DNA of 63,953 nt, counting the filler, from Basidiobolus ranarum (Eukaryota): NCBI GenBank assembly GCA_040143965.1. It is 3 parts of 3 records of this genome, joined end to end, with 100 filler letters (N's around TTAATTAATTAA, not from the genome) between each part and the next. Parts side by side here need not be neighbours in the genome. Positions count along the whole stretch, not along the records: positions 22,261 to 44,350 come from JASJQH010007068.1; 2 more parts are not named here. One strand, written 5' to 3'. Position 1 is the first letter of the stretch; the number at the start of each line of letters is the position of its first letter. The notes below the pieces were generated by a model. That model was given only the letters and a program-made list of their open reading frames with translations. It did no database searches and was not told where the DNA came from. Shown piece by piece: positions 16,101 through 46,824 of this stretch. The position numbers and the translations under genes were made by a program.

Positions 16101-19089
16101 CGAGAAATTGATTCGGATTCAAGATGTGATAAATTATTTCCACCCTGACCTTGAACAGATGTCACAACATCTGGTCTCAATTGCTCAACAGTATCACATT
16201 GTCATAGATGCTCATCGATCCATCATTGAAGGTTACGAAGTAGAATGGACAAGTATTATATCCGCATGGGAACAGGATATCTCAAAGATCAATGAATTAG
16301 AGAGCTCAAATCAAGGAATTCGAGGTGAACTCGAATCTATTGAAACGGAGGCCAGAAAATTGCTAAGTGAACTGGAACTATCCCGGGAGAAGAAGCTCCG
16401 TCATCTAGCTAAAGAATTAGTCCCAGACCTTTTAGAACCAGAGCAATTATCACTATCTCCTATACTTGATACCACCACTACACCCAGAAGACGCTCTAAT
16501 TCCATATTTTCGGATTCCCCCTCAGAGATCATCGAAAAGTTGGCATCGAAAGTTTGCAATTTGGAACGTGAGCTTGAGAGTCGAAACAAAAAAGACAAAG
16601 AGCGCGAGCTTTTGATTTGTGAATTTGCTAAAATCTTGGAGAATAACGTTAAAGAGGCAGAGTTCGATTTGATCAAACAATGCAAAGAAAAGCGTTCTAA
16701 TGCGAATTCTCGAAGTGGTAGTCCTTGTGAGAGTCCAAAATCTCCCAGATCAAATGAGAAAGAAGATTCGTTAGTGCAAATTTTGCGACGACAGCTTGAC
16801 ATCAAAGATCGCCAGATTCAGCAGTTGAAGAGGGCTAATGAATCCCTCAAAAGCAAGTTGACTAATGGGGAATCAAGTCCGACGAGCTCAAAAGAAGACA
16901 AAACTGGAGCACTGGAAGAGACAAGTTTAAGTACTCCTCCTAAGCAATCTATCGTGGATGTAGAGCCAGAATCAGTTTCTTCTGTCGAAGTACCAGCTGA
17001 GTGTAGTCGTTTGGAGGTCGAGCTTCGTTATGTAATTGGCAATCTGAAAGAAATAGAGATGCAAATTCGTGAAACTGACAGCAAACTTCATCGCGTTGTT
17101 ACAAGCAAGCGCTGGATTTATCACAAATCTTTGGCTTTAGATCAACGTGGTTTAAACAATGCCTACTCTTCGAATGAATTATCACTGGAAGACTCGGATA
17201 CTGAGAGTTTACCGAATTTAATGGAACAGGCCAACATGCTCTGTGCAGAACATGATCAGATTATTGCTGATCGTAGAGGATTGGAAAAGGAAAAGCTGAG
17301 TGTTATTCGTCGCATGAATCAGTTGCGAACCAGAATAAAAGAACTCCTTCGTAGGGAAATAACGGAGACTAATGAGACTCCACAAAAATCATTTTCATCC
17401 GAAATCTCGATGAACAATGAACACCAAGAAGCTTATGAGGGTGTATTACCTCAAGTGACTGAATCGAAACTATCCATTCAATCTGTGGAGTCATTGATCT
17501 TTAGTCTGCAAATCACTCTCACTCATCAACTTCGCATTCTTAGCTCCGGTTTGACTTCCTCTAGACTTCAAATCGCCTCTGCAAAAGGTGAATTGCCATC
17601 TCTAGTAGCACAGGCTAAGAGATTTGTTCATGAACTGAATGCCACAAAGGAACAACTTGGTGCAATTGGTACTACTATTGAGATGGTTCTCGCAAATCGC
17701 AAACTTCTCTTACGACATTATGGTGAAATAGGAGTTGAGTTGAACAGAATTGTGAGCTCAGCTTATTTGCACAAGAGTCAGCGCTCTAGTTTCGCGGACA
17801 ATAACGATCACAATGGTGTGTTGGTACCTTTACCAAAACTGGATGAATGGCTACAAAACTATCAGAGTGGACATCAACCTAGCTGGGCCTCGAGTCAAGA
17901 TATTGAGGAACTTGGACTGATCTATGCTTCTTTCTGGAGCTCTCTTGAAACCGCTCGTGAGGAAAAGTCCTTACTTCAGAGAAAATATACCCAAATAGAA
18001 AATGTCTTGCTTCGCGAAAGAAAGTTGCTTGATTCTAGTGGCATGGAAAGTGAAAGTGGTCTACTAGGTATTTCAAAGATTTTGAACAAAATTCGCAATC
18101 GAGAGGAATTATGGCAAAGTACGAAAACGGTGAACACAAATCCGACTCCATCTGTACAAAAGAAAAGGCAGGGCGGGATTATACCTAGATCGACTTCGAA
18201 TGATGACTTTGGCTCTATTATCTCAACTCAGTTGTCGGCTTCACCATTACGGATTCAATCTGGTTCGCAAGCACCACTCCAAAACTTTAAAATCCCACCT
18301 TTCAATGCCAACAAACTATCCAGGTCTTCATTGTTTCTTGATTTGCAACCAGCTATAAAGGTACATTTGTATGTATTTATTTTAATGTACGATGCATTGA
18401 TATTGATGTACTTTAATCATTGACAGAAATCTCGCTCCTCTTGCCCAGACCTTCGCCTACTTGTAAAGCAATCGCTTAGTACGACTACAGCTATGCCCGA
18501 TCGCAAATACTCCACACCAATCCTGAAGACGAAAAATGGAAATGTCAAGCCATTACGCCGCAGAGCTCATTCCATTGACGGCAGTATCAGGCCAACTATA
18601 CCAAAAACGACACCACGTCGACCTCAGACATCCAACAATTCGCCAATACTTGATTTGAGTAAAAAGAAACTTACTCCCCTCAAAGGACCTGAACGCAGAA
18701 ATCCAGTCAGGTCAGTTAGTGCCTCGCCCGAAATCCGTACATTAAGGAAAATTGCATCTTCCGCCTCATTGCTGAATAGATCTCCTGGGACTCGTTCAGT
18801 CACCAATCCATCGGCACTGGGTCTAAATGGGTTTTCCAAAACTGAAAACAGAGGAGGTAGTCGTACTGATTTGTTGCAGCAAAAACTCACGATCCTTTCA
18901 CAACTACGCAAAGAGATGGACATTCTTGAGAGAGTGAATTCATCTGCAACAACATCCACACCCAACAATAATTCGCAAGAAGAGGAGAAGCGACGATTCC
19001 AAGCTATATTACGTAAGAAACGGGAATATATTCTACGCTTGAAAGACCTCACCAAAGAATGTCAAGTAGCCTTAAATTCATCCTGCTAA
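13161..19089 (+). CDS. Large ankyrin-repeat / coiled-coil protein (5 exons: 13161-13456, 13531-13820, 13885-14048, 14116-18360, 18427-19089; ~1885 aa)
   Basis: Several ankyrin motifs (TPLNIAVFSGH, GITPLCLASYLG, GATPLMYAARDGH, GNTPIHYAV, GADLNIRNNNGKTP) followed by Ser-rich low-complexity and heptad-rich regions. GT..AG introns link the ORF-track pieces in frame. Confidence 0.85.
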
Positions 19090-22953: not shown

Positions 22954-23598
22954 TGATTTCAGTAATTCTTCAAACGAATGGATTTCGTCGTGAAAGAAAC
23001 AAGAGAAAGAGCTATCAATTTGATAACCATCGGGGTCATAACATCTTTACTCATTTTCGATTGGTTACTCAACAAGTCATGTGATCTATTTATCAGCTTT
23101 TTCTGATTAACTTAGACTAGCATTTAGTTCATATGTTGTCGATGAAGAATGCTATGAATATTCTAAGGTGAGGATGTCTCATATTATGATGTAGAATTCT
23201 ATTTACTCCTTCCAATGAAGCATAGTATCTCAATGTAATATCTTGTAATACCACAGCACTAGATGATCTTTTATGAGATCTCTTATTGACAACCTTCATT
23301 TCCTGCTTTCCACTTTTCACTTCCCGATTTAGTTATATACTGATGGATAAATGTAAGATGTAAGATCTTGATCTATATTTTGAATGAAAAGTTTCCAACA
23401 TCTTTACTACTCGAAGGAAAGACTCTACCAGTAGATTGACTGCTTTCGAGGAACCCCTGGCTAATTTGGAATTTCTGGTGACTGCTTCCCCAGACCCCCA
23501 GCTCACTTTTACTTATTTAGCTGATTAATTTGGAGAATCATCTTCTTGAAATTTGTGAATTTCTTCCAACCACTGTATTGTCTACTTTCGCCAAAAGA

Positions 23599-24831
23599 AT
23601 GAGTTATAGAGACTTGAACCCATCATTGCGTACTATCATGACTCCTGGACCGGTGGAGGTAGAGCCTAGAGTTTTGAGAGCATTATCTACTCCTATTGTA
23701 GGCCAATTCGACCCCGAATTCACTGTCATTATGGATGAAACTATGGAAATGCTTCGAAAACTTTTTCAAACTAACAACCAATGGGCATTTCCAATTGATG
23801 GTACTTCAAGAGCAGGTTTAGAAGCAGTACTCAGTAGTATCATCGAGCAAGAAGATGTAGTGCTTGTACCAATTTATGGAAGATTCGGACATTTACTTAC
23901 TGAAATCGCTCAACGTTATGGTGCTCAAGTAACTAATATGGAAACTACTTGGGGACAGGTATTTGATCCAGCTGATGTCATTCAAGAAATCGATAGAGTA
24001 AAGCCTAAGATCGTCGCTATGGTACATGGTGAAACTTCTACTGGTTGTTTGCAACCTTTGAAAGAAATTGGTGAGGCATGTAGAGAAAGAGATATTCTGT
24101 TCGTTGTGGATGCAGTTGCATCAATTGGTGGTGTAGATGTTCGGGTTGACGAATGGAAGATTGACGCTTGCATTGGAGGTACCCAGAAGTGTCTTTCCGC
24201 TCCATCAGGAATGGCCCCAGTCACTTTTAACTCCAGAATAGAGTCTTTGTTATTAGAACGTAAAAAGGTTGAGCAAGGATTAACGGACCTAAAGGCAAGT
24301 GAGTTGTCAAAACGTAGGATGATCCGCAGCAACTACTTTGACTTGAGTCAATTGATGGATTATTGGAGTCCTGTTCGCTTAAATCATCACACTGAAGCTA
24401 CCTCTATGTTATACGCACTACGTGAAAGTTTAAGAATAGTATTGGAGGAAGGACTTGAGGCTAGATTTGCCAGACACCAACTTCACGAGAAAGCTTTAAT
24501 GCAAGGACTTCAGGCAATGGGGTTAGAGCTTTATGGTGATTCTCGCTCGAAACTTCCAGTTGTTACCTGTATAGCTATTCCTGAAGGTATTGATGGTGAA
24601 TCAGTACGTTCTATGTTGCTACGTGACTTTGAGATTGAAATTGCTAGCTCCTTTGGTCCTTTGAAAGGAAAAATTTGGAGAATAGGTTCTATGGGCTTCA
24701 GTTGTAGAAAGAAGAATATTCTGAGTGTATTGGGGGCATTGGAAGCAGTACTCATTCGACATGGTGCACAAGTAAAACCAAGTGAGGGAACTCAAGCAGC
24801 ATTGGATGTGTATCATCAACATCAAAATTAA
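23599..24831 (+). CDS. pucG: Class V PLP aminotransferase, bacterial PucG-type ((S)-ureidoglycine:glyoxylate transaminase-like), intronless, 410 aa
   Basis: RTIMTPGPVEVEPRVLRA, GQFDPEF, PIDGTSRAGLEA, VHGETSTG, GGTQKCLS (PLP lysine), SNYFDLSQLMDYW..RLNHHTEATSMLYALRE and EIASSFGPLKGKIWRIG match the Bacillus PucG pattern as I recall it. The first ATG is at 23599. Confidence 0.9.
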   Translation: MSYRDLNPSLRTIMTPGPVEVEPRVLRALSTPIVGQFDPEFTVIMDETMEMLRKLFQTNNQWAFPIDGTSRAGLEAVLSSIIEQEDVVLVPIYGRFGHLLTEIAQRYGAQVTNMETTWGQVFDPADVIQEIDRVKPKIVAMVHGETSTGCLQPLKEIGEACRERDILFVVDAVASIGGVDVRVDEWKIDACIGGTQKCLSAPSGMAPVTFNSRIESLLLERKKVEQGLTDLKASELSKRRMIRSNYFDLSQLMDYWSPVRLNHHTEATSMLYALRESLRIVLEEGLEARFARHQLHEKALMQGLQAMGLELYGDSRSKLPVVTCIAIPEGIDGESVRSMLLRDFEIEIASSFGPLKGKIWRIGSMGFSCRKKNILSVLGALEAVLIRHGAQVKPSEGTQAALDVYHQHQN

Positions 24832-24966: not shown

Positions 24967-27900
24967 CTAGGGTCTGGCTTCATATACATCAATGTATTTC
25001 TGAAGAAGATCAGTGGTAAGCTCAGGACACAATCCAAGGCCTGCATTAGTAAGCATTCCAATTGTGCGAGAGCAGTTATCTTTTTGGTAAGGAGTACGCT
25101 TGGAATCAAACTTTTCAGGCAAAAGTACACCAATTCTTGACGAGAAGGGATTGCTTTTATCACTTTGAATTTGTTGATACCATTCTTCGTAAGGTACTAT
25201 GGCCATGGGCCGTTCAAGCATGTTCGCCATCTGGGCTACGGATTCCAAATCGAGGTCATGGTGACTACTCAGATTAAACGCATTGCCAAGAGATGCAGGC
25301 TTGACTGACATATGGACGATGCTTCTCGTGACGAAATCAACTGGAGTAATATCTAAGTTTCCAAGTCCAGACGGCACCGAGCGACTGTGGAAACATCCTT
25401 TTAGCATAACATTTGTTGTATCCGTTGGTGATCCAATCCCATTTGTAGTGTCACCCATGATGGCTCCTGGTCTATAAATCGATACTTGGAAGCCACGTGA
25501 GTGAGCTTCACGAAGGATAAGTTCAGCGATAACCTTGGAGTAACAATATCCATTTGCAGCATCATCAAATGTTGCAAACGATGGTTCAATGAAGTTTTCG
25601 AATTCATCATATTGGCACCCCTTTTGTACCACTCCCAAAGTAGACACGAAATGAATCTGCTTTGATCTTCCAATGGAAGCCATCTTCAACATCTCCGTCA
25701 CACTATTTACATTGGCTGCTTTCAACATTGTATATGTGTAAACGAAGTTCACGTTGGCTCCATTATGGTAAATCAGATCGATGTTGTCCCCCAGATGTGC
25801 GAACTGTTCTTCGGTTAAGCCCAGGCGTGGCTGGGCAATATCTCCTAGTAAAATTTGAATGCGTGCGAAATCACACATATTACTTAGAGAATAGCCATGA
25901 AGATTGTTGCGTACACGGTTTAAGCCATCCTCCTCAGTATTACCACGGACAACACAGTAGACCTTAGCATGCGGGAATTTCTGAAGAATCTCAATAAGTA
26001 AGAAGGCACCAAGAAAGCCAGTAGCTCCAGTAAGTAAGATCCCATCGACAGTGGATTCTTCAAGGTCTCTACCCGTTTCATGAGTGCTCCTAACGGGTAT
26101 CAATTTCTCGTCGAGTTGGATCTCCTCTCGCCAATTTATCTGCCAGCTATGTGGTTTTGAGTCAGTATCTACCTGAGATAAAGTATCTCTGTTTTTTGCC
26201 TCGCCGTCAATAAGGCTAGAGAGCTGACCGAGACTGGTGTTTTGATAGATTTGCGGAACACGTAAGGAAATATCAAATATTTGCTTGATCCGCTGAAGTA
26301 AGTTGATAACAAGCAAAGAATTACCACCGACATGGAAGAAGTTACTCATCACGTTGACTTTATCAATACATAAAAGTTCCTCCCATATCTTGGCCAGTTC
26401 CAATTCCGTTGGTGTTCTTGGAGGAGCTGCCTCAATTTTTCCAATAGAGTTGATGAAACTCTGATCTGCATCCCGAAAGATAGCCTCTAATTTTTTCCGA
26501 TCAGTTTTTCCACTCGAGTTCATAGGTATATTATTCAATGGCGCCCATGTTGAAGGAATCATATGCTGTGGGAACACCTTTGACATTGCTAAGCGAATTG
26601 CAGCAATGTGATTATTTATCGCTTTGAGACTTTGCTCATCTGACAGTAAAGTAGGCTCGCAGTTATCCAAATATTCGTTGAAGCACACAAAGGCCACTAA
26701 AGCCTTACGATTTCCAGAAGGATCAGTCTGAGCTAGTATAACACAAGCCTGTGCAATATCAGTTTGCTGTTGTAAAATATGCTCTATCTCACCCAGTTCT
26801 ATGCGTAGACCATTCAATTTGACTTGATTGTCTTTTCGTCCTAATATCTCCACCGAGCCATGGCAATCAAACTTCGCAAGGTCTCCGGTTTTATATAGCC
26901 TCTCACCTGGTACATAAGGGTTCTGTACAAACGCTGTAGAAGTGAGATCTGGTCTATTTAGATACCCACGCGCCAATTGAGCGCCAGAAACACAGAGCTC
27001 ACCAATAGCACCGATCGGAACAAGGTTTAGAGCCTTGTCTAAGATGAAAATTCGATTAGTGCCGAATGGTCGCCCTATGTTGCTACATGGGGTATTGGTA
27101 GTGAAGTTCAATCTCTGCGTGCAATCAACTGTAGTCTCAGAAGGCCCATATCCATTGTGTAAGCAAACATGGTTTGCCCATGTATCTCGGACTTGTCTGC
27201 TTAGCATTTCCCCTCCAATGAATATTTGTTTCAAAGATGGTACATCCTCCGGTTTGATAAGACTAGCCACGGTAGTAGTGAGTGCAGTAGCTGTTATTTG
27301 CATATCAGCCATAATCTGAGTAAGATTTTCTAATAAGTTCTCCTTTGAGGCCAGGCATATGCATGCACCCTTATAGAGAGTGAAAAAGATATCTAAAATT
27401 GAAGCGTCAAAAGTATAGTTGGCAAACTGTAGAACTCTATCGTCAGAATTCAATTGAACTATAGATCCATATCCAGCCATGTAGTTGACTACCGCACGAT
27501 GTTCTAATAAAACCCCTTTTGGCACACCTGTGGATCCAGAAGTGAAGATAACGTAACAAAGATTGAGTGAAGACACTTCGGTAGTGAGGTTCTCCGTAGG
27601 ATATGCTCCAATGATGTCTTCATGGATATCTAGCATTACTAGTTCCAATCTAGTTTTTGATGTGAACAGAGTCTTATAACTAGATGTAGTAATGACTAAA
27701 CTTGCTTTTACCTCCTCTAGAATAAACATGTTTCGATCAAGAGGGTTACTTTTATCCATTGGGACGTAAGCTCCACCTGCCTTGAGAATTGCCATCATAG
27801 CGACAATCATATTGACCGATTTATCTAGTAAAATGGGAACCATAGTCTCTGGACCCACCCCTAACGAGCTAAGGTGATGTGCAAGTTGGTTGGCACGAGA

Positions 27901-30900
27901 ATTGAGCTCAGAATATGTGGCTGTTTCTGTCCTCTCAAACCGAATTGCGATCTGATTGGGAGTCAATCGCACTTGGTTTTCGAATATTTGATGAATACAG
28001 GAATCTTGGACTACCGGAAAGTTTGTCGAATTCCATCCAGTGGTTAGCAGCTCTTTCTCTATGGGTGAGATGGAGTTGATTGAATTGACAGTTGTGTTCG
28101 AGTCCTCAATGATATTGCGTAAAATTGTAGTGTAATGCTCAACAATCCAATGAACATCATCCTTTTGAATCAGATTATCATCATACACTGCATTGAAAAT
28201 GACTTCTTTGTCGGATACAATAAATTCTGCACATAACACGAAATTCACTCCCATTGAAGCTGACTTCAGAGTCATCGAGAAATCTTTTGAAGGTTCGTCT
28301 GCTTCTTCTGACGCATTTTGAATGATTACCAGAGTATCAAATGCTACCTGGAATTCTTTCTGAATATCTGTCAAGCTAGCATTACCAAATCGCAAGGTAT
28401 CGGCGTGTTTTTTGTGTAGTTTATGTAACAAATCGGATACCTTCATATCTCCGTTCAATAACACTCGACACGGAAGTGTGTTAATGCATGGTCCACACAT
28501 GTCCTCTATTCCGTTCACTGGAGTATCACGACCCCAATTTGTAACTCCAAAGGCAACATCATCATTGCTGGTGTAATTACGTAAAATCAATGTCCATACC
28601 ACCTTAAGAACAGTGGCAATAGTAATGCCGTTGGACTGAGCAAATCGATGCACATTATGGTCAAGTTTACGTGTAATGCTCAGTTGTGCTTGTGGTTCAT
28701 AGTGAGGGGAAGGCAACTTGACAAATGGAGTGATCGAAATGTCTTTTAATTCTGCTCTCCAAAATGCCATAGTCTCCTCCATATTTTGTTGTTGAAGGTA
28801 AGATATGTACCTGGAGTAGGGAGGTCGTACTTCAAGAGAATTCGAGTAGTAAGCAGTGTAAAAGTCGTTCATAATCATCTGCATTGACCACCCATCATAT
28901 AATGCGTGATGGATTGTCCATATGCAATACATATGTCGCGAGGATACATTCAAAAGTTTAAACCTCATCATGGGCTCCCCAAGAGTAATCCCTTTGGCAA
29001 GGTCGGAACTAAGAATTTGAACTAATTCTGCATCTACGTCGTTTTCAGTAGAAGAGATTGTTTGCCATGGTATTTGGTTGTTCTTAATGACGATCTGTAG
29101 CCCGTTGAAGTGCTTATATTGCAAGTCGGAAAAGAGAAATACTGTACGAAGAATGGGATTGATTCGAGCCACATGTTCCCACGAGTCTTGGAATCGTTTC
29201 ATATCGACTTGACCGTGAATTTCATATACTAACTGAGTTAAATAATTGCTAGAGTCTTTCAATGTCATGGCTATAAGACTATCCTGTAAACGTGAGCAAG
29301 GATATATATCTTCAATATTCTCGATGTCAATCCCGTTTGTCAGAACAACTGATTGAATCAATTGCTGAAGCTGAGATTCGTCCAAGTTTAGTAAAGAAAA
29401 TTCCTCAATGGTCTCTTCTTTGAAATGCGACTGATCCGAGGTGTTGATATTATTTGCGATTTTGGCAATCGTTGTGTGGTCAAATAATTGTTGAACAGTG
29501 ATATTGATTTCGTATTGACGTCGTGCTATTGAGGCAAGTTTGATAGCTAGAACTGAATCACCACCTAAATGAAAGAAGGAGTCATGTACCCCAATGAACT
29601 CGGGCTTTATGTGTAAGATCTCGCTCCATATCGTCTGTAACTTCCTTTCGATGCCAGTGCGTGGTTGCTCTTTCGCATCACTATTAGTATTGCTGAATGT
29701 TTCTAAAATCATTTCTCTATTTTCGTCGAATAATGATGCCAACTTTCGGTTATCCACTTTGTGATTATTGGTTAAAGGCAGGGCTGTCAAAGGAACCCAT
29801 ATCTTTGGAATCATATAGCTGGGAAGTTTCATTGCAATTGCATTGCGTATATCAGCTATCATCTTACATATATCCGATTTATGTTGTTCTCCAATTATCC
29901 CGGTCTGTTCTTGAGATGCGAATTCCTTTGTAAAGCATATGAAAGCAGTAAGAGCCTTACGCTCTGTTTCGGAAGATACTTCAAGTAGCGTAACATGAGA
30001 ATGCTTGATCCCTGGTAAAGACTGTATGATATGCTCTATCTCGCTCAATTCAATGCGAAGTCCATTTAACTTAATCTGATTATCTTTACGACCCAGTATA
30101 ATGACGGAGCCGTCAATTTCGAAGCGAGCAAGGTCTCTCGTTCTATACAATCTTTTCCCGTTTACTAATCGATGAGAAACAAACGACTCTGCATTAAGAT
30201 CGGGCCTATTCAAATAGCCACGAGCCAGCTGAGGACCGGCAGTCCATAGCTCACCAACAGCTCCAATAGGCACTGAGTTCATATTTTTATCAAGGATAAA
30301 ATATCTGTTGCCTCCAATAGGCCATCCAACATTACTGCAAAGCATTGATTTCGTGAAGTATTTTCTGAGTGATGTTATCACCGTCGTTTCCGTTGGACCG
30401 TACGCATTGATTAAGCATACCTTTCCGGCCCACATATCACGTACTCTTGTGTTAAGCATTTCCCCACCAACCATAAGCACTTTTAAAGAAGGAACTTCAT
30501 CTGGTGTAATAAGGCTGGCAACAGCAGTATTCAAGAATGTTGTCGTAATCTGCATTGTGTTCATCACGTGAGCCAAATTATTGAGAAGACTATCCTTGGA
30601 GGCCACACATAGACATGCTCCTTGAGAGATTGTTAGGAAGATATCCAAAACACACCCGTCAAATGTATAGTTTGCAAACTGCAAGGTTCTATCAGTTTCT
30701 TCTAGCGTGATTTCTGTTCGGTGGGCTTGTATATAGTTGGATAGGTTACGATGTTCAAGCATTACTCCCTTAGGAGCACCAGTAGATCCTGAAGTAAAAA
30801 TGATATAGCATAAATTCGTAGACTGCACCTCCGTTATGGGATTTGATATCGAATTGGCAGCTATGGAAAGTTTATCTGTATCAAGTAATAGCAGCTCTAT

Positions 30901-33900
30901 TCCCAGACACTGTGTAAAGATTTGCTGATATTTGCTGGTGGTTACTATTACACTCGTGTTTGCTTGATAAATAATGTTTAGATTACGCTCTACTGGGTTT
31001 GCAGTATCTAAAGGCACATAAGCACCTCCGGCCTTGAGAACGGCAAGTATAGCAACAATAGTGTTGATTGATTTGTCTAAACACAGGGAAACTATAGTTT
31101 CTGGACCAACTCCCAATGAAATCAGGTGATGTGCTAATTGATTAGCGGAGTTATTGAGCTGTTCGTATGTTATTGCTTCGTTATTTTCGAGCAGAATAGC
31201 CACATTGTTGGGGGTTTTTTCAACTTGAGATTCGAAAGCAAAATGAGCACAATCATGTAACTCCTCATAGCAAGAAGTGTTCCATTCTTTCATTATTAGG
31301 CGCTCGGCTTGAGATACGAAACTAACGGCATTCATCTGTGTATTTATATCAGTCCTTACCAAAGCCTCTACTATATAGTTAAATTGTTCACAACAACGTT
31401 TGGCTTGATCCGCGTTAACAAAGGAACTGTTATAGTCCATATGGTAAAATATCTTCTTGTTATCGGAGTTGATATTCAAAACAATGGCGTACTAGAGAAT
31501 GAAGTAAATGGATTAGTGATGCTATTTGATATTTCATCCCGCCAGTTAGATGCATAATCAAAATATAATTTACTTCAGTTGGTTCCAAAGGCACATCCTG
31601 CAAGAAAACAAGGCGGCCTTCTGGTGAAAGTGGTGGAGTATTATAATCATCTTCAGGTGACATTTCTCTAATAGGCTGGTAGTTTATAACCGTATTGAAC
31701 ATTGTTTCAGGTTCCTTCTGGTGATCCGAACTATTCAAGTCCTTTAAATCATAATCCTCATATGGCATCGCGGCCACATAATCTTCATGTATAGAATTTA
31801 AGAACATCATGACAGTAGACTCCTCCTCAAAGCGAATTCGTCGAGTTCGTACATTAATGCAAGGTCCTACAATGCTAGAAATACCATTGATTGGTATACT
31901 TCTACCGTTAAGTAGTTCGCCAAATACAACATCATCACAATTAGTGTAGTGGTGCAGCATGATGGCCCATGCAGCGCGTAAGAGAGTAGCCGTCGTAATC
32001 TGTTGACGCTTGGTAAATTCGGAGATTTCAGAAATAGAGATATCTAGTGTACTAAATTGTTGCAAGGTTTGACTGACTTCCTGATCACAGCTTACAAGCG
32101 TTGGGAAGTTGCAGGGTTGTAAATCCAACAAATAATCTTTCCAATATTCTTCCTTGCTAGCTGAGTAGCTCTGCTTATTGTGGTACTTATACGAAATAAA
32201 TTCACGATATGGTAACACTGGAGGAGGGGGCTTTTCATTATATATCGCCTCGATGTATTGGTCGATGATTCGACTGGACCAACCATCTATGATTGCATGA
32301 TGATAACTAACAATCATCTGGTGTTGGCCTTCATTCGTTGTTAACAAAGCCAGGCGAATATTAGCCTCTCCCAGGGGGAATCCTGCAGCGATATCATCCT
32401 GAAGATAGCTCTCGAGCTTTCTTTCAGCATCGTTTCTGTCACATACTATATGCTTCCACTCGGGTTGGAATTCTCGAGATACAACCTGGAGACATGTGGT
32501 TCCGGTAGAATTTGTGGAAAATGGATTCACAAAGAATTTGGTTCGAATGATCGGTATATCTCGAATAATCGTTCGCCAAGTATTCTCCAGCTTATTGAAA
32601 TCAAAGTCACCTACAAGAGTGTACACACTATGGATATGATAATGAGATGGATTCTTCATATTTCCAGCAATGGTGGCTTCTTGTATAGGAGAGCATGGGA
32701 ATATATCCTCCACTTCTCCAATATCAAAGCCTGATTCAGGCAAAAACTTTTCTGTAAGTAGCTTCAACTCTTTATCCGAGATTTCTAGGAGTGGAAAATC
32801 GGTTACGGTGAATTCTGCTTTCTCCATTTGGACGCAATGTTCCAATGTTTCACATAATGCCGCCTGCCAATTTGAAGACCATTTTTGAATCTCGGACTCT
32901 TGATGAAGACATTCGCTGAATGTTATAGATGCCTCAAGACGTTCGTCAACTAGACGGAGAGCGACATCAAATATCTCAAGGCGTTGCATCAAAGGATCTG
33001 AGTTCTGAAGATCAAATTTGTACTTCTCATCAACTTCTTGCAAAAAAGCATCTTGCTTTTCCAACTGTTGGAAACGCCCAAAATAGTTGAAGGAGATTTG
33101 CACCAGGTCTTTTTCATATTGTGAACTATCCTCCTTGTTGAGATAACGAAGTAAGCCGTAATGAATGCTCTTTGAAGCTATACGTTTGCGAATATCTTTT
33201 GTGTTCTTGAGTACATCTCTTACTCCATCATTGTCGTCCACATAAATCGTTACTGGATACATACAGGTAAACCAGCCTACAGTTCTGGATATATCGATTG
33301 AGTCATCCCATGGTTCTCGACCATGTCCTTCCATTCCCACTGTAAGCGCATCAGTGCCAAAGGTGTTGCAGTAAGATACAGCAAGAGATGAAAGCATAAT
33401 ATCAACTGGCTCAGTGCGGTATGCTCGGTTAGAATGCCCAAATAAAAGCTTAGTTTGGTGAGAGTCTAGAAGGAATGAGACTGACCGCTCGGAGTTCACA
33501 GTATTTTTGGAAAGTTTAGCAAGATCAGTGCAGATGGGCTCCGCTAATTTGGTAATTGGCCAAGCCGAAGTATCTAGAGCAGCGGCATGCTCGCTCAACA
33601 AATTACTCCAAGTCTTGAATGGCATTGATTTGAATAGGCACTCTTTGCCTTCAAGTAGTAACTCCAGATCCTCCCATATAATTCGCCAAGAGACAAAATC
33701 AACAACATAGTGATGAATTGCCATGAACAATAGCTGCTCACCCTGTGGCATATCGTATAATGAGAATGAGAATATCGGCCCAGTCTCTAGATTAAGGCTA
33801 CGTTGGCAATGGTGAATCTCTTTGCGTAGTTCGGCCACAGAAACCAAGGTTTTCTGCGTCACATCAAAATCTACTTGCTCCTCATTTAGTACTCTTTGCT

Positions 33901-36900
33901 CTAAAGTTCCATTTCTCTTGCTGAATCGTGCCCGTAGCATGTCATGATGGGTAACTAGACTTTTGATAGCCGTCTTAAGAGTTGACTGATTTATCGGTGA
34001 ACGGACCTTGAGCAACCAGGATTGATTAAAATGATTTTCGTTTCTTTGGTTTACTTCAAGAGACTGCAGCAGTATAGGCGTGAGCGCAACTACACCTTCA
34101 CCTGAGTGGATTTCGATAGAGTTCAAAATTTTTGATTCACCAACAACAGCAGCTAGTTGATTTATTGTTGGATAGCGCAATACATCTTGAACTGAAACGA
34201 GCAATCCGGATTGACGGCACACCGATGATAGTCTGATAGCAGAAATGGAATCTCCGCCAAGGTTATAAAATGAGTCATGGATTCCAATAGTAGAGGAGTC
34301 AATATTTAAGACCTCCGCCCAAGATTTTTGCAGTGTACTCTCGATATCTGTGCGTGGTTGTTCCGACGTTTGATCTAGAGATAAAGTAACACTTCTGATG
34401 GTCTTAAGGTCAGATTGAGCAAGCATTTTCAACAGACTTTTGCGGTCCGACTTGCCACTTGCGTTAGTTGGCATTTTGTTTAGTGGGACCCATATGGTTG
34501 GAATCATTTGCGAGGAAAGCTTATTGGCGGCAATCTGACGAAGATTGGATATATGTTTCCTAATCAAATTAGGATTCTGCAGGTTCACCAAGATCATTGG
34601 ATCACTGTTTAGCTCATTTTCTGGATCGTTGTCATCCAATAAATGTTTTATACACAAAAAGGCCACCAAGGATTTCTTGCCCTCTATATCTGTTAATGCA
34701 AGACTCACTTGTATAATCGGTTGATATTCGTAAAGAACCTGTTCTATCTCCTCTAGCTCTATCCGCACTCCATTAAGTTTAATTTGGTTATCTTTCCGTC
34801 CCAAAATGGTAACTGACCCATCTAAATTGAATCTACCCAAATCACCGGTTTTGTACAATCTTTCACCTTTCATGAGTGGATGTGGAATAAATGCTGTCAT
34901 TGTAAGATCGGGCCTATTGAGGTATCCACGGGCTAGTTGGGGGCCACCAACACAAAGTTCTCCTATCGCTCCAACAGGGACAAGCTGAAGATTTTCGCTC
35001 AAAATGTATACCTTGTTTCCACCAAAGGGTCGGCCAATATTGTTACAGGGTACAGACTGATCTACCTTCACTCTTTGTGTACAATCGACTGTTGTTTCGG
35101 TTGGACCGTAGCCGTTATTTAAACAGACATGCTTGGACCATAAGTCACGCACAGGTTCTGTTTGCATTTCTCCACCCAATAGTAGCATTCTCAGTGAGGG
35201 AACATTTTTCGGATGTAAAAGGCTGGCAACTGTAGGTGTCAGTGCCATTACGGTAACCTCCATTTTACGAATTGTCTCCTCTAGGTTTGAAAGAAGATTA
35301 TCTTTCGACGCCAAGCAGATGCAGGAGCCACTGCAAAGACTAAAGAAGATGTCTATAATAGATGCATCGAAAGTATAGTTTGCGAATTGTAGCACCTTGT
35401 CATCTGGGCCCAGATTGATGATGGACTTGTACCCAGCTAAGAAATTGACCACAGCCTTATGCTCTAACATGACGCCTTTTGGTGTACCAGTCGATCCAGA
35501 TGTAAACAAAACGTAACACAAATTAGATGCTTCAAAATTCGGTACGTTCGGGTTGGTATTAGTACAGTTCTTAAAATCCACTCCATCGACTAGAACCATT
35601 TTCACGTGGGACAAATCAGAAAATATTTTTTCATAATTTCTTGTGCTAATTACAACTGCAGAGTTGGATTCTCTTACAATATGTAGATTGCGCTCTGTGG
35701 GGCTAGATGGATCAAGAGGCACGTAAGCCGCACCAGATTTAAGGATTGCCAACATAGAAACTATCATATTCACTGATTTATCCAAGCACAGTGGTATGAT
35801 ATTTTCTGCACCAACACCTAGTGAGATTAGATGATGAGCCAACCTGTTAGCTTGACTGTTCAAATCTTCGTATGAAACCGATAGCTTATCCTCGAACTGA
35901 ATAGCGATTTTATCCGGCGATTCAGCTACGTGTTGCTCGAATATCTGATGTACACATGTATTCTCTATCACCAAGAATTCTGGTGAATTCCATACAGTTG
36001 TTTGCAAATGCTTCTCCGAAAGTGGAACGATATCTAACGAATCCAATGTTTGATGCTCTTGAGAATGCACTAACGATGAGACAATAGCATCGAACTGGCT
36101 CAAGAGGGATTCAGCTTGCTCCACATTGAGAGCGCTACTATTGAATTCGAGCTGGTAAGATATTTCATCTTCTATACATTGTACCTCCAGTCCACAGCCA
36201 TACTATAAATAAAATGGATTAGTAACCAAGATTAAGTAGCAATCAAATGAGTCATATATACCTCAGTAAAGTTAATACATTTGGTAAGGTTGAAAACCGA
36301 ATCTTCACCAGATGTTTCCACTGGTCCTAAGTAGTTGATTATGGTGCTGAACAGGGGATTTTGAGAGTTGAGGCCAGCCCATCGATGAATGTTTTGCAAA
36401 CTGCACCGCTGGTACGGAGTACTCGTTATGTAATCTTGATAAATTGTTTGTAACCACTGTGTTACCTCCGATGCCCCAGGAATCTGAACTCTGCATGGAA
36501 GGGTGTTTATACAAGGCCCAACGATGTTTGCGATGCCAGATATGGTCTGGTTTCTTTTTCTGCCGTTGAAAATGTACCCGAATATAACATCGTTACTGTT
36601 CAAATGCTTTTGTAACAAAATTGCCCATGCTGCCCGGATAAGAGTAAATATGGAGATATTTTTTCTGTTTACAAACCACTTAATCGCCGATAGAGATACA
36701 CTAAATGTCCCTTCAATTTGATTTGGATTTATGTTTCTAGATTGTGCACTCTCAACTTTTGGAAAAATGCATGGCTCAGCGTTCTTCAAATAATTCTTCC
36801 AAAATTTCTTTTCTCCAGCGGTGCTGGATTGATCGTTCTCTATGAAATATCTATACGCCAGCGTCTTAGGGCGAGGTGTCTGGCTATAGATTGCTTCAAG

Positions 36901-37581
36901 ATCTCTGCAAATCAAGTTAGCTGACCATGTATCCATGATGGCATGATGCCAACTGATTACAACCTGATTATTACCACTACCAGTTTCCAATAAGATCAGT
37001 CGTATATTAGGAGAGCCAAGAGGGAATCCTTTGGTGATTTCAGCGTCGATAACCTTTTGAAGAGATTGTTCTATATCACCTTGACACTTGATGTGTTCCC
37101 ACTGGGGACACATTTTACGGAGCACAATCTGCAGGAATGTTACATCATGAGAGTAAGGATTGAATATGAAACATGTTCTCAAAATTGGATTTGCCTGAAT
37201 CACCATATTCCAGGCTTCTTGGATTCGTGAAAAGTCGAACGAAGATTCTCGGATCTCCATTACATGGTGGACATGATAAACAGCTGAATTTCTTGCATTT
37301 CCTGCGATGAGACCTTCTTGTACTGGGGAGCTTGGTAATATATCTTCTACTTCACTCATAGCAATGCCCACGGAAGGTAAATGTACATTGATCAACTTTT
37401 CTTGAGCATTCTTGTCCATCGATGATAAGAAAACGTGTGGAGATTCTATAGTAAGGGATTTTGCTGTTGGATTGACTTTGAGATCACGATTCTTAATGGT
37501 TGTAGAATCATTTCCAGTACAATTAGTTCCTGAGTGCGTTAGGCCAGAGAACGCGTGGCTGTTCTTATTAATTGCGGGCAT
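24967..37581 (-). CDS. Trimodular NRPS C-A-T-E-C-A-T-C-A-T-R (exons 37581-36262, 36202-31574, 31491-24967; ~4157 aa)
   Basis: C cores HHAIMDTW, HHAIIDGW and HHALYDGW. Three A domains (FTSGSTG.PKGV, YGPT/SETT, LYKTGDL/LYRTRDL, GRKDNQ.KLNG.RIEL). T motifs LGGDS, LGGDS and VGGNS. E domain HHYVVDFVSW, EGHGRE, RTVGWFT, FNYFGRF. R domain LLTGATGFLG, YCYSK, YRPG. Two phase-0 GT..AG introns (36261-36203, 31573-31492) with CTAAT branch sites join the three ORFs. Confidence 0.95.
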
Positions 37582-37661
37582 AGCTGCAAGTTGTTCGGTA
37601 GCAGGGAGTATGAAGGAAACCTACACTGTATGATGTGGGCTCCAGTGAGTGTACTTTGATA

Positions 37662-37667
37662 TTTATA
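37662..37667 (-). promoter_or_regulatory. Candidate TATA box of the NRPS gene
   Basis: TATAAA on the minus strand about 80 bp upstream of ATG 37581. Confidence 0.35.
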
Positions 37668-40053
37668 GAGGTGGACTTCGGGATCCGATGAGCTCAGCAT
37701 AAGCATATAGATAATATTTCCACGGCGTAAATGATATTTTGTTCGACTTACCCTTTGTCCCACAATAATTGCATAGCTTTGGGTGGACGTTAATATTTTA
37801 CTGATATTATTCACTTCACTAGCTAACCCTGGCCCAATTCTACAGCTGTACCTTTGCTACTCTGCTTCTGGAATAATGTAAGATCCTGTGGAGAAAAAAA
37901 TACCGTTGTTTTCAACCAACCAGAACAAAGTTGCTTCTCTTTAGTTGAACCCTGATTTTAACAAACGAAGATCATATCTTACTTAAGTACATAACTTACT
38001 ATGAGGTAACGTCACACATCGAACTAACACTAAGCCACCGCAAGGGTATTCCACGCTGTTACATCCATCTAAAATTTGACGTACGTTAGTCACTAATCTG
38101 TCGTCGTTTCAACGGCAATTGGCTTGAATCTAATGATAAAAGACATTTTAAGAAATCCCGATTCATCACCAACCACTGCCGCTTACCACAGCCAGTTACC
38201 CAGCTTGTAGGGTTGGACTGCAGCTTCGAACTGAGTTCCAAAGGCCAAATATTTGCTGTATTTATTGTTCCTAAAATAGTCTTAGTCACAACTAAACCTG
38301 GGGTATGTAAATCCAAATTTAGTATTCTCTGTATTTGTTTGGCGTTGTTGATTGACACTGGGATTATTGGTTCGATTAGTTGTTTGATCGAAGAAACCTT
38401 GATCAGTAGTAGAATGGATTGGAACACACTTGTAGAACTTGGACAGGAAGATACCATATATGGATATGGTATTAGATACTGTTTACCTCATTACATGCTT
38501 ACACAATAGGCTGTTGAAAGCTTCCTTGCTTTAGCCCGGGATAGAAAAGAATAGGGGGAGTGACACTAGAGGTCAGTACGATGCAGTGCTATCCTAGAGA
38601 AACGGTTAGGGCAATCTAGTCTATATTTGGAAATTAGCATTACTGGTCTAGTCGCGTATATATGGTATTAAGACTCTTCTTGTATTACGACTCAAAGTGA
38701 CAAGAAACATACATAATTGACTCGGCCTGTAACACTTATTACAGAGGATGTTTCTGTAAAGTATTCAGGGGTGTGCGACTTGGGGTTTGGTGAGTTGGCA
38801 GATAAACTTACGTGTAGGGTATTAAATGACAACGAGGAATATCATAGCTCAAGTTGCACACGTAATAAATCAGCAAGTATGCATCAAGATGTTGGGGAAA
38901 TAGTTTAAGGGGTTTTGATGATTCGACACATTAATTTCTGTACACATGCATGATATGGTATGTTTTGTGTGGGTACTCCAATACTCAGAGGATCTGCACG
39001 AAACAATATATTGTTGGATTTTCATTCTGCCATACAATAATTGTAGTCGCAAAGAAGAACTGGACTGAAGTTGTTGAGTAAGCACCTGGATTTTAACTAG
39101 CTATGCATATCTCATACAGCATTTCACTTCGGAATATCTGATGATGAAATATTACTCGGACAGTGTTGAGTTGTACTACTTCTTATTACTAGCGGAAAGA
39201 TAGTGAATGTAGGATGCGCCACTTGAAAAGTCCCATTTTATTTTACTTCGATAGGTGAAACCACCAAAACCAAAACCAAATCCACATGCTTTGTCTTTAC
39301 ATCTTAAACATATTTATGATGGAATCCAAAGGGAAAGGCTGTTAACTATCTTTGTGGTATGTATCAGCTTCCATAGTATTTGGTAGCGCAAAGATTCATA
39401 TGCATTTTGCCATATTGCAGCGATGTCAAGAATAAGAAAATTATGACAACTTTGTAGAATGTAAACAAATATTTAATTAGTCATGCAAATACTTGTTTTC
39501 AACTCCATCATCCTAGTTCTAATTGTCTCCCTATTCCTAATTTTACAAAAATCCTGACAAGTATGTCAAACACTCCATGCCAGCTACTTGTGATAAGTAG
39601 CCAAATGTGGATGAGTTAATTTACACAACATATCAAAACCCTTCCAAACATATATAATAGACTTTATTAGGTTGTGAGCTAATAGTCCACAGCTTTCTGG
39701 AACAAGTCTGATACACTCAACGAAAGGTGATGAATTATATCCCTTGGTCAAACCAAACTAAGCCGCTTAACCTTTAGCAGTGCCTGTTTTAAATGTGGAC
39801 TTCTCAGTTACGATAGAGAGAATCTGTTAAAAAATCCTAGAAAAGTTCAGTTCAGTATTACATAAGCAGCGAAGTTGACTTTCCAAAGTCTTTTTTACTC
39901 CCAGTGGTATTACGAATGTCATTCATGGTTATTTGTTCTATCCAAAAATCCATTCAAAATATACCTAAAGTCCATACAATTTTTCCAAATCAATATAATG
40001 CAAGCGATCTTCGATGTTACCAGATTTTGTATGTGCGTATGGTTAGGGAGATT

Positions 40054-40203
40054 CTATGTGTGGCGAGGATATTCTGTGAGTAGCTATGTGTGGAGAGGAT
40101 ATTCTGTGAGTAGCTATGTGTGGAGAGGATATTCTGTGAGTAGCTATGTGTGGAGAGGATATTCTGTGAGTAGCTATGTGTGGAGAGGATATTCTGTGAG
40201 TAG
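40054..40203. repeat. Minisatellite, 5 x 30 bp (CTATGTGTGGAGAGGATATTCTGTGAGTAG)
   Basis: Five contiguous copies with no spacers and one substitution in the first copy. Confidence 0.97.
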
Positions 40204-40551
40204 CCCCTCCTCCATGTCTTAATCCGGCCCGATCACTAGACAGGCATCGTGGGTAACTCTTGATAAACGTGCCATAGATCGTTATGTCATCAATACCACT
40301 TCTACTAATACCACTACCCATACACACACTGACAGCTCATAAAAGAATAGCCTAGAGCCTGCCCCCATAATTCCTATTGGAATGATGCGCTTGGGCTTTG
40401 ATTCAATTGATAGTTACTGAATACCACACTAAATTCTATTACGAACCACCTCCCATTAATATCCGTGCGCTCATGAATGTCTCAGTCCGAATTCTATTGC
40501 CATTGAATCGTTCAACAAATCGCTTGAATCCGATAGTTATCTCACCAATGA

Positions 40552-43737: not shown

Positions 43738-44350
43738 TGTCATAATCTAATAATAGAGAAGTTCTATTTGTAGTGGATCAGTATGCCAAGATCATAATCA
43801 TGACAGTATCCCCTTCTTTAGTCATGGCTTCCAGACATCATAGGGCCAGGTTTTTCTGGGTAGGCTTCATGAAACTCCTGGCAAAGTTCCTTGGAATTAG
43901 AAAGATTTGTTGCTGGCTCCCACAATTGATCATTTGTTGAGTATCCCTTCCAGTCCACTAAATATTGCAATTTATGTTGATAAATTCTGGAATCTAGAAT
44001 TTTGCTAACTTCATATTCAGGGTGTTCTTCCACTTGGATTGCTGGGGGTGGGTCAATGGATCAGCCATGGAAGGTGTTTCTGCCATGTGGCTCTAAGAGA
44101 GACACATGGAATACATTATGGACTTTGAAATAGGCAGGGAGTTCAAGGCAGAAGGCTACTGAATTGATTTGCTTAATAATCTTAAAAGGCCCTTGTCTTT
44201 TATGATCAAGTTTATCACAAGGTCTAGTGGTTTTGATATTTTTCCGGAGTAGCTAAACATAATCTCCTGGCTTGAGATCTGGGCTTGGCTTTCTTTTCTT
44301 ATCAGCAAAGTTCTTGTATTGGGATTGAGCATGCTCCAACTCAGATATTG
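43738..44350 (-). mobile_element. Decayed Ty3/gypsy chromovirus 3' end: integrase GPY/F region, chromodomain, polypurine tract and LTR start
   Basis: [60 protein letters not shown] with two in-frame stops. The PPT AAAGAAGGGGATAC is followed directly by TGTCA at 43805. The far LTR boundary is uncertain. Confidence 0.92.
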
Positions 44351-44856: not shown

Positions 44857-46824
44857 TCATAGAGTTATCTCTTGTGAGGCACTCATTTTCTTTTCATCTT
44901 CAGTGCTATCTGAAACGACAGAAGGTTGGTCTTTCGAGAACCATATTAACGTACATATCCCTACGATTGCCGACAAAATGCATCCAGCCATAGCCCATTT
45001 TCCCTTTGCCGTGAAGGTCCCGGGAAGAGGATTTGGTCCGGCTATATATCCACTGAGATCTAATCCTTGTTTGCCTACAGCATTTCCATTAGTTTTAATT
45101 CCTTGAGTGCTGCAAATGTCAAATGATTGTTGAGGAATCTTGATACTTTCTTGTATCTGCTGTGGTGCCTCAATGAACGTAGCAGTCAAACCAGCTTCAA
45201 AATGCCATTCAATGTGGCAATGAAATGGCCATATTCCAGGATTATCGTCGCGGAACCGAAATACTACATAGCCACCCCCAGGTACTTGAACGGTATCCCT
45301 ACGAACGGGATTTGTTTGCTCCTTCACTGGATTGGTAGTGTAGTCATACGCCCCAGCACCCGCAGCGCTACGTCCCATCACTTGAAATTGATGTCCATGC
45401 AGATGAAATGGGTGCTCATCACCATCCCAATTGTTGATTACCAACTCTATCATCTGGTTATGTTCGATAACTATAGGATTACTGTATTTGCCATAGACTC
45501 TCGGATCATCGGACAGCGCTCCCATACTAACTGCAGTAAACAGCGAGGGGACTTCCGGCGCTATGTACGTAACGTTGTTGAATAATGCCCGATTCATTCC
45601 GTTATCCATAACGTTGAAAAATACATTAAGAACTATTCGGTTGTCCGGAGGTGCTGAAGCAGCAGCAACTATTGGAACCATAGTGGTATCGTCAAACTCT
45701 GTGTCTGACTGTGTGGTATTTGGCGGCAAAGTATACAGAGGGGCATTGGCACTGTATGTTATAGTAGCATTGATATTAGGATTGAGATTTGGATTGGTAG
45801 CGGCAAACATTGAGACATCTATATCGGCATGCATAATGAAATTGTTGGCAGTAGAATTTTTAGTGCGTACCAATACGGAATACCGTTGGGCTGCAGTAAT
45901 CGGCAGAACCTTTATCGTCTGGGAAACAACGTCCACCCCGTCTGCCTCAATGATCTCCAAGTCATGCCCATCAATGCGAAAGTTGAACATGGAAAAAGCT
46001 GACATATTTATGATCCGTAAACGATAGACCTTTCCAGGGACAAAAGCAAAAGTGGCGTTTTGAGACCCATTAATCACACCAGCATCCGGGACTGGCTCAA
46101 CCCCTGTTGGGTTATAGATACTCAGATATTGGGACATGAGCACGCTATGTTCCTCATAGTACCAGTCGTATAACGCCACAATATATTCTGCGTCGTATGT
46201 ATAAACTTCTTTTTTGGCATGCAAGATAAGGGGGGCTCTCAGACCATCCACATATTGGCCAAGGTAGTGGCCATGTATCCAATAGGTTCCGGACTGCTGC
46301 ACAGGAATGTTATATGTGAAGTTTCCACCAGGCGGAATGGGGCTATAGAGATCGAAATTAGAAAGGCGTTATACTGGACATGTTTAGAAATCTTACCATT
46401 GATGAAACATAGCTGCCCCATCGAAATGGTTGGTTCCATTCTGCAGCAATCCGTGACAGTGGAGGGTGTTTCCTACATCAAGGGAATTATACTAGAAATC
46501 TGTTAAATTCGATTTCGATATATTTAACTTGCATATATCTCTTACCACATTCACTATCAGATTGTCGCCCATTGTTGCTTCCAAAGGAGGAACTCTGTAG
46601 TAGAAAATATAAAGCCATTGAGCATTTAATCATCAGGATATTATTAAGGGCACTGCTTACGGGAATTGCCCATTTACGCCGATAACTCTGCGAGGATGTC
46701 CTCCAGTTGGATCAATGCTATTAACATAGGTAATCTTCCAGTTGTAGACCACATCCGCAGCTTGGATACTTGAGGCCAATGCAGTAGCAGAAAGTAGTAA
46801 CTTCCAGAAGTACTTGTGCGACAT
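44857..46824 (-). CDS. FET3: Multicopper ferroxidase Fet3 (exons 46824-46661, 46594-46546, 46491-46397, 46342-44857)
   Basis: Signal peptide; Cu motifs LHCHG, YWIHGH, HPFHLHGH and FHCHIEWHFEAG; ferroxidase-type acidic residues in GVEPVPD and RRDT; C-terminal TM helix; divergent from FTR1. Confidence 0.93.

Follow-up and report, generated by a model that had tools for sequence, protein, structure and literature searches.

A predicted three-module nonribosomal peptide synthetase with an epimerization domain and a terminal reductase in Basidiobolus ranarum

What would a fungal megasynthetase make if it begins with a condensation domain and ends with a reductase, and from what would that first domain receive its donor? 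The question is raised by a gene on the minus strand of a 63,953-nucleotide stretch of DNA from Basidiobolus ranarum (parts of three records of assembly GCA_040143965.1 joined end to end; hereafter, the window). Basidiobolus is a gut-dwelling, occasionally pathogenic fungus. The spliced gene specifies a nonribosomal peptide synthetase (NRPS) of 4157 amino acids (aa) that is identical, residue for residue, to the deposited "hypothetical protein K7432_005110 [Basidiobolus ranarum]" (P0001), which also bears out the early-diverging fungal host of the original prediction made for this locus. The reading that we favor, and consider probable, is that K7432_005110 is an intact three-module NRPS of bacterial style that would place a D residue in module 1, release its product by reduction, and take the donor for its N-terminal condensation domain in trans.

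Domain architecture and the N-terminal condensation domain

Three minus-strand stop-to-stop open reading frames (ORFs) underlie the gene (36232..37620, 31460..36202, and 24967..31491). It had been proposed that they join through two short phase 0 introns, and this joining, its coordinates, and the length of the product are all confirmed by the identity with K7432_005110, an independently annotated model with the same exon structure as our reading of the junctions; the splicing itself is predicted. The spliced gene has 12,471 coding bases, and its only stop is the terminal one. Since the intron lengths of 59 and 82 nucleotides are not divisible by three, retaining either intron would break the frame.

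Pfam searches of the three exons returned the series Condensation, AMP-binding, PP-binding, Condensation (the epimerization domain), Condensation, AMP-binding, PP-binding, Condensation, AMP-binding, PP-binding, and NAD_binding_4, each scoring well over its curated cutoff. This corresponds to the domain order C-A-T-E-C-A-T-C-A-T-R (C, condensation; A, adenylation; T, carrier; E, epimerization; R, terminal thioester reductase). Catalytic motifs are kept in all three C domains, in the single E domain, in all three T domains, and in the R domain, so that both the order and the recognizable motifs first claimed for this protein stand. Each of the three adenylation domains has SGSTGxPK, the pocket lysine, and an AMP-binding match above the Pfam cutoff. 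The E domain carries RTVGWFT and FNYFG in addition to the motifs listed in Table 1, is 50% identical to the E domain of a Basidiobolus meristosporus synthetase (P0002), and falls within a clade of 12 E domains with a support of 100 in the large tree described below. Together with the post-E type of the C domain that comes next, these signatures and this placement bear out the epimerization assignment.

The C domains of this protein and its relatives fall into two classes according to what precedes them, and the class of the N-terminal domain, C1, bears directly on its donor. In an IQ-TREE phylogeny of 17 C domains (from K7432_005110, B. meristosporus, and five B. ranarum paralogues, with Sorochytrium as the outgroup), C1 and all eight post-E C domains lay on one side of a branch with 100/100 support, whereas 6 of the 6 post-T C domains, C3 included, lay on the opposite side. 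C2, the domain next after E, lies in the same 100/100 post-E clade. Best matches gave the same division: in the five B. ranarum paralogues, each of the six post-E C domains had C1 or C2 as its best match, and each of the two post-T C domains had C3.

Larger trees of the A domains and of the C and E domains were built with FastTree from 45 hand-chosen proteins (the query plus every one of the 19 bearing fungal names, 17 from bacteria, and 8 unnamed), with the other 75 of the 120 listed proteins of 3806 to 5000 aa left out. In the C and E tree (175 rows), C1 lay nearest to C2 of the same protein and to the C domain that follows E in P0002. C1 stood apart from the 14 bacterial N-terminal C domains sampled, and against this comparison set it did not show the placement of a starter (lipoinitiation) domain. 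A profile search with exon 1 found no non-self protein above 33% identity among the 150 listed, where giant synthetases dominate, and it contributed nothing on the origin of C1. Similarity between the E-to-C linker and the N-terminal region of the protein was limited to the start of the C domain.

The position of C1 in the post-E clade suggests that its donor is a D-configured aminoacyl or peptidyl group and not a fatty acyl cap. The product had at first been described as either N-capped or chain-extended; the N cap fares poorly given the separation of C1 from the 14 bacterial domains, while chain extension is the better fit to the 100/100 clade. By its placement, C1 appears to be a copy of the class that in the Basidiobolus family always takes its chain from an epimerized carrier. 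Three readings of C1 are possible from the sequence: it may accept a D-ended donor from another synthetase, it may have been re-used for another donor, or it may be a relic. Since C1 keeps HHxxxD and belongs to the post-E class, a donor in trans is the likeliest of these, and the most likely reading of the whole protein is that it would terminate a longer line and not make a lipid-capped tripeptide.

The introns also bear on the history of C1. When C1, C2, C3, and E were aligned, introns 1 and 2 both fell after column 407, both in phase 0, and C3 had no intron at that column. C1 and C2 share 39.3% identity over 440 columns, with 61% of positions differing. The simplest reading is that the intron predates the divergence of C1 and C2, and if the intron is older than their split, the duplication would have happened in an intron-bearing eukaryotic genome. 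The IQ-TREE phylogeny left the sister relation of C1 and C2 unresolved, so the intron may be older still. The two introns also share an exact 12-mer, ACTAATCCATTT, at 36223..36212 (-) in intron 1 and at 31517..31506 (-) in intron 2, in each case shortly 5' of the acceptor; it consists of a branch-site-like ACTAAT plus six further bases, and the window holds exactly these two copies, one per NRPS intron. In a shuffle control with one mismatch allowed, 3 matches were reached in 7 of 100 shuffles, which is not significant, and as a meaningful signal the shared 12-mer is suggestive only.

Reductase, relatives, and ancestry

The R domain matched NAD_binding_4 (PF07993) with an E value of 3.3e-62 and aligned to the solved MxaA reductase (PDB 4u7w) with an E value of 1.1e-65 over 308 residues, TGxxGxxG, VST, and YxxSK being conserved. 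The nucleotide-binding motif and the Thr, Tyr, and Lys aligned to MxaA substantiate the reductase that had been predicted; a Thr/Tyr/Lys catalytic triad is named for such reductases in the available sections of PMC7551626. Among the 120 best matches to R in proteins of 645 to 2000 aa, 46 rows named an organism; all of these were bacterial, mostly cyanobacterial, with 35 to 41% identity, and there was no fungal name. Across the 360 proteins searched, the 223 non-self R domains that aligned over more than 250 residues had a median score of 218.5 bits, and the named ones were mostly bacterial. Two fungal proteins are like K7432_005110 in being multimodular NRPSs with a terminal NAD_binding_4, a peptaibol-type synthetase of Trichoderma (P0319) and one of the chytrid Geranomyces (P0316), but their R domains scored only 66 and 102 bits, respectively, against this one. 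Among the Basidiobolus proteins in the search matches listed, K7432_005110 was the sole synthetase bearing an R domain.

The whole protein has no close relative among those searched. For exon 3, the best non-self match (best 120 of the proteins of 3806 to 5000 aa) was a B. meristosporus synthetase with 38% identity and no R domain, followed by R-ended cyanobacterial proteins, NcpB among them, with 31 to 32% identity over 99% of the query. For the A3-T3-R region, the best matches (best 120 of the proteins of 1195 to 3805 aa) were the five B. ranarum paralogues, with 44 to 46% identity over the A/T part only and no PF07993; R-ended proteins that were bacterial or unnamed came after them, at 30 to 37%. 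The exact order C-A-T-E-C-A-T-C-A-T-R was found once among the 120 longer proteins, in the query itself, and in none of the 120 shorter ones. Among the listed shorter relatives, C-A-T-C-A-T-C-A-T-R occurred in 18 of 120 and C-A-T-E-C-A-T-R in 2 of 120, and 35 of the 120 listed relatives of 3806 to 5000 aa were four-module R-ended proteins. No characterized orthologue was present among the proteins searched, the best non-self relative being 38% identical, in agreement with the initial impression that this architecture is not that of a characterized enzyme.

Several named systems resemble parts of K7432_005110. NcpB of Nostoc (P0024, from N. edaphicum CCNP1411) likewise has a C domain first and A-T-R last and aligns over 99% of exon 3, but it is only 31 to 32% identical, has four modules and no internal E domain, is cyanobacterial and intron-free, and has other A-domain codes. 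The myxalamid enzyme MxaA (PDB 4u7w and 4w4t) is the best solved match to R, with the nucleotide-binding and Tyr/Lys motifs aligned; however, it is part of a myxobacterial polyketide synthase (PKS)/NRPS hybrid and says nothing firm about the outcome of release here. The NCBIfam models of AusA (aureusimine) and MxcG (myxochelin) match the C-A-T-R end with 1396.8 and 1180 bits, far below their equivalog cutoffs of 2500 and 2300, and these enzymes differ in module number and substrates. Bacterial C-A-T-C-A-T-C-A-T-R synthetases (P0244, and P0250 of Dyella subtropica) share the three modules, the N-terminal C domain, and the terminal R domain but lack E, are 30 to 35% identical over the compared region, and have source names that assign no product. 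The mycobacterial glycopeptidolipid and linear gramicidin lines are also released reductively, and K7432_005110 is not orthologous to them. By analogy, the enzyme would play the part of the terminating subunit in bacterial lines whose peptides are released by reduction, while being an orthologue of none.

For the A, C, and E domains, the nearest relatives are instead the Basidiobolus paralogues: the B. meristosporus protein P0002 ("amino acid adenylation, partial") and B. ranarum K7432_009943, 005451, 009916, 005516, and 009731. A-T-E-C units are common in them, but they are only 38 to 46% identical, start with A rather than C, and have no R domain. In the A-domain tree (176 rows, FastTree), A1 to A3 grouped together weakly (support, 73), within a clade (support, 99) that also includes the four P0002 A domains. 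This clade lay on the bacterial side of a split with a support of 100 from 83 Dikarya-type and unnamed A domains, and it was weakly sister (63) to a bacteria-plus-Linnemannia clade, not nested within it. The Basidiobolus C domains lay on the fungal side in the C and E tree, with a support of 99. On these placements, a bacterial origin appears well supported for R, the A domains give an ambiguous picture, and the C domains lend it no support. A3 is 55% identical to A1 and 53% to A2, compared with 44 to 46% to the paralogues over another stretch, which suggests that the modules arose by duplication within the lineage. The GC content at third codon positions (GC3) of the NRPS exons (0.385 to 0.395) is inside the range of five neighboring ORFs of ordinary eukaryotic families (0.374 to 0.494); this host-like composition indicates that the gene is resident and not a contaminant.

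To describe the substrate pockets, we extracted ten positions per A domain by anchoring on conserved motifs. As a control, the same procedure reproduced all four published codes of NcpB of N. edaphicum (P0024) at all nine positions tabulated in the available text of PMC7551626 (Table 2). The A1 and A3 codes agree at 8 of 10 positions, and both pockets have small lining residues and Asp at position 331. Asp-331 is familiar from pockets for long polar or basic side chains. With low confidence, A1 and A3 may select a residue of that kind, and A2, at the same low confidence, a hydrophobic one.

Proposed mechanism and its alternatives

Under the terminating-subunit reading, A1 would load residue 1 onto T1, where E would epimerize it, and C1 would condense residue 1 onto a donor presented in trans, the D-ended aminoacyl or peptidyl carrier of another synthetase. 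C2 would then couple the D-configured intermediate to the substrate of A2, whose pocket is hydrophobic, and C3 would add the substrate of A3, whose pocket almost matches that of A1. Finally, an NAD(P)H-dependent R domain would reduce the T3 thioester to a C-terminal aldehyde, and a second reduction would give an alcohol. We infer this chemistry from established NRPS logic and the reductive release from the precedents of MxaA and NcpB. MxaA is an alcohol-forming reductase that carries out two reductions. According to the available sections of PMC7551626, the R domain of NcpB releases a linear peptide aldehyde, and NcpB works behind NcpA, whose last module has an E domain.

Several points weigh against this reading. 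A tblastn search with the eleven domains found no second NRPS gene or remnant in the 64-kb window (22 outside matches, all with E values of at least 0.16), and the NcpA-like upstream subunit ending in E, as in the nostocyclopeptide line, therefore has no counterpart there. One B. ranarum paralogue model, P0241 (K7432_009943), stops right after an E domain, in the manner of an upstream partner; however, its tail past the last E lacks the usual DFPLL-type ending and its contig barely exceeds the gene, so the model may simply be truncated. A2 departs mildly from the core motifs (YRTRD and NHK), and C1 has Thr in place of the usual Gly in HHAIMDT, a possible relic of duplication. No match to any of the three pocket codes was found in a literature search. 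The nearest solved reductase being alcohol-forming, an aldehyde is not favored over an alcohol. Which of the two is formed, and whether the product inhibits a protease or the proteasome, is not readable from sequence, and an inhibitor role is pure speculation.

The five B. ranarum paralogues (P0241, P0243, P0287, P0308, and P0242) are rich in A-T-E-C and lie on contigs of 11 to 21 kb. One of these models ends directly after E and two stop inside E, indicating that the assembly truncates several NRPS genes.

A fuller version of the scenario, which we consider less likely than not, combines a split fungal line in which a T-E partner hands over to C1, duplication of an intron-bearing C domain in a fungal genome, an R domain of bacterial ancestry, and a peptide aldehyde with a D residue as the product.

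Two alternatives concern C1 itself, and we regard both as unlikely. In the first, the enzyme stands alone and its N-terminal C domain caps residue 1 with an acyl group, so that the product would be an N-acylated tripeptide ending in an aldehyde or alcohol, in the manner of fellutamide or leupeptin. The intact HHxxxD of C1 would allow this, the window holds no partner NRPS, and 18 of the 120 listed shorter relatives look stand-alone with the order C-A-T-C-A-T-C-A-T-R; but the placement of C1 is among the post-E C domains (100/100), away from the 14 sampled bacterial N-terminal C domains, and the genes expected to supply an acyl group were not found nearby. Outside the NRPS gene, 13 large ORFs were searched with Pfam, as were 97 of the 180 ORFs that are 60 aa or longer (those left out overlapped assigned genes or lay at 1 to 7.4 kb or beyond 58.7 kb), and in these 110 ORFs there was no acyl-coenzyme A ligase, acyl carrier protein, PKS, or fatty acid synthase.

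In the second, C1 is an inactive relic of duplication, and the product would be a D-L-L tripeptide with a free amine and an aldehyde or alcohol end, which may cyclize spontaneously to an imine or hemiaminal. In favor of a relic, C1 is most like C2 within this protein and shares its intron column, Thr stands in for the Gly of HHxxxDG, and the roughly 70 residues that precede C1 were assigned no domain by Pfam. Yet both His residues and the Asp are kept, and C1 is full length, with no stop or frameshift, despite its extensive divergence from C2.

It is very improbable that the product is an iron chelator, a reductively released siderophore like myxochelin, tied to a FET3/FTR1 pair. The multicopper oxidase and FTR1 permease do lie 7 to 12 kb upstream in window coordinates, the MxcG model does match the A-T-R end, and siderophore NRPSs are expanded in Basidiobolus according to the available text of PMC7466969; however, an HSF-type gene and retroelement remnants intervene between the NRPS and the iron-uptake pair, the MxcG score is about half its cutoff, and no ornithine oxygenase, acyltransferase, or aryl-acid gene was present in the ORFs scanned. 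The architecture, which ends in R, is also unlike that of fungal ferrichrome-type synthetases. In fungal hydroxamate siderophore synthetases, A-T-C units repeat and the protein ends in T-C; genes for an ornithine oxygenase and an acyltransferase lie close by. Just as improbable is a silent or decaying gene with no product, for although the A2 motifs are unusual, three exons run without an internal stop, all catalytic motifs are kept, and a TATA-like element lies upstream.

Genomic setting and significance

The window has the gene content of an ordinary eukaryotic chromosome, with EF-Ts, Cdc37, PGI, zinc-finger genes, RPL36, an HSF-type gene, and a KA1 kinase. No tailoring cluster surrounds the NRPS gene, as judged from the 110 ORFs scanned, which contained no transporter, P450, phosphopantetheinyl transferase, acyl ligase, or second NRPS. 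ORF translations showed no recognizable coding sequence in the approximately 3 kb farther upstream of the putative promoter. The coordinates of the gene and its parts are collected in Table 1.

Table 1. Features of the K7432_005110 gene in the window
Feature	Position	Strand	Description
Whole coding region	24967..37581	-	3 exons and 2 introns; spliced product 4157 aa
Putative core promoter	37582..37700	-	TATAAAT ~80 nt 5' of ATG, read by eye
Exon 1	37581..36262	-	440 aa; junction sequence read
Intron 1	36203..36261	-	59 nt; GTATAT...TATAG; GT..AG; phase 0; within C1 after ..NFTE|YGCG..
Exon 2	36202..31574	-	1543 aa; junction sequence read
Intron 2	31492..31573	-	82 nt; GTAAAT...TCTAG; GT..AG; phase 0; within C2 after ..EPTE|YAIV..
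Exon 3	31491..24967	-	2174 aa plus stop; stop included in the interval
C1, N-terminal condensation	35963..37347	-	aa ~79-520; split by intron 1; HHAIMDT at aa 212; post-E clade
A1, adenylation	34373..35941	-	aa ~528-1050; pocket code DAIALGGVDK
T1, carrier	34145..34336	-	LGGDSI; LGGDS at aa 1088; Ser 1092
E, epimerization	32795..34087	-	aa 1146-1576; HHYVVDFVSW, EGHGRE; E-domain clade
C2, condensation	31291..32725	-	aa ~1600-2050; split by intron 2; HHAIIDG; post-E type
A2, adenylation	29671..31239	-	pocket code DGLFMGAVIK; YRTRD and NHK core-motif variants
T2, carrier	29452..29643	-	LGGDSV; LGGDS at aa 2625; Ser 2629
C3, condensation	28045..29313	-	aa 2710-3132; HHALYDG; post-T type; intronless
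A3, adenylation	26506..27984	-	pocket code DALAFGGVDK
T3, carrier	26206..26403	-	VGGNSL; VGGNS at aa 3704; Ser 3708
R, terminal thioester reductase	24970..26034	-	aa 3803-4157; TGATGFLG, VST, YCYSK

Only one enzyme gene adjoins the NRPS gene. Convergent with it, with 135 bp between the stops, this is an intronless gene for a class-V aminotransferase of 436 aa (23521-24831, +). The product is nearly a copy of the ureidoglycine-glyoxylate aminotransferase PucG of Bacillus subtilis (PDB 3isl; E = 3.5e-192, 641 bits, 403 residues), and the GC3 of the gene, 0.300, is below that of its neighbors; it is likely a recent transfer from a Bacillus-like bacterium. We considered this enzyme as a tailoring aminotransferase that would turn the aldehyde into an amine and dropped the idea because PucG belongs to purine catabolism.

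Other features lie farther away. Upstream of the NRPS gene is an intergenic tandem repeat (~40020-40340) with a unit of ~30 nucleotides in at least 5 copies, read in translations as SYVWRGYSVS and HIATHRISSP repeats. Short ORFs at 43821-44252 (-) that encode an integrase SH3 domain of the Tf2/Ty3 type and a chromodomain are Ty3/gypsy remnants between the HSF-type gene and the oxidase. The Fet3-like multicopper oxidase (44857-46368, -) and the FTR1 permease (48561-49477, +) are divergent and form a classical reductive iron-uptake unit. An ORF at 51458-51877 (+) encodes a peptidase inhibitor I9 domain (subtilase propeptide), with no peptidase domain in the adjoining ORFs scanned. On the other side of the NRPS gene, an open frame of 1445 aa (14086-18423, +) has ankyrin repeats at its start only, and more ankyrin ORFs lie at 13083-14078; the ORFs from 13083 to 18423 are probably one large multiexon gene.

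The original prediction had noted that multimodular NRPSs are scarce in most non-Dikarya fungi. For this genus the rarity was overstated, and the surprise is smaller, because the available text of a 2020 survey (PMC7466969) presents Basidiobolus as exceptional among non-Dikarya fungi in having many NRPS genes and proposes transfers from bacteria. In that text, the expansion is described for other species of the genus, B. ranarum is mentioned only twice, and even the link to a cyclopentapeptide awaits genetic confirmation. A literature search found no paper on the gene K7432_005110 or the locus-tag prefix K7432, the prefix returning one unrelated paper. K7432_005110 belongs to the Basidiobolus NRPS expansion already described; it is uncharacterized and introduces no new principle.

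General understanding of how NRPSs function is unchanged by these findings. Going by the available text of the survey, no natural product has so far been genetically tied to a Basidiobolus NRPS (PMC7466969), and the reductive release domain makes this gene a concrete place to look, in an early-diverging fungus, for a peptide that ends in an aldehyde or alcohol. Two further points reach beyond this gene. The identical intron positions in two paralogous C domains would be a datable marker of module growth inside a eukaryotic genome, and the N-terminal C domain of the post-E type makes a testable prediction, that in this fungus one NRPS may hand its chain over to another.

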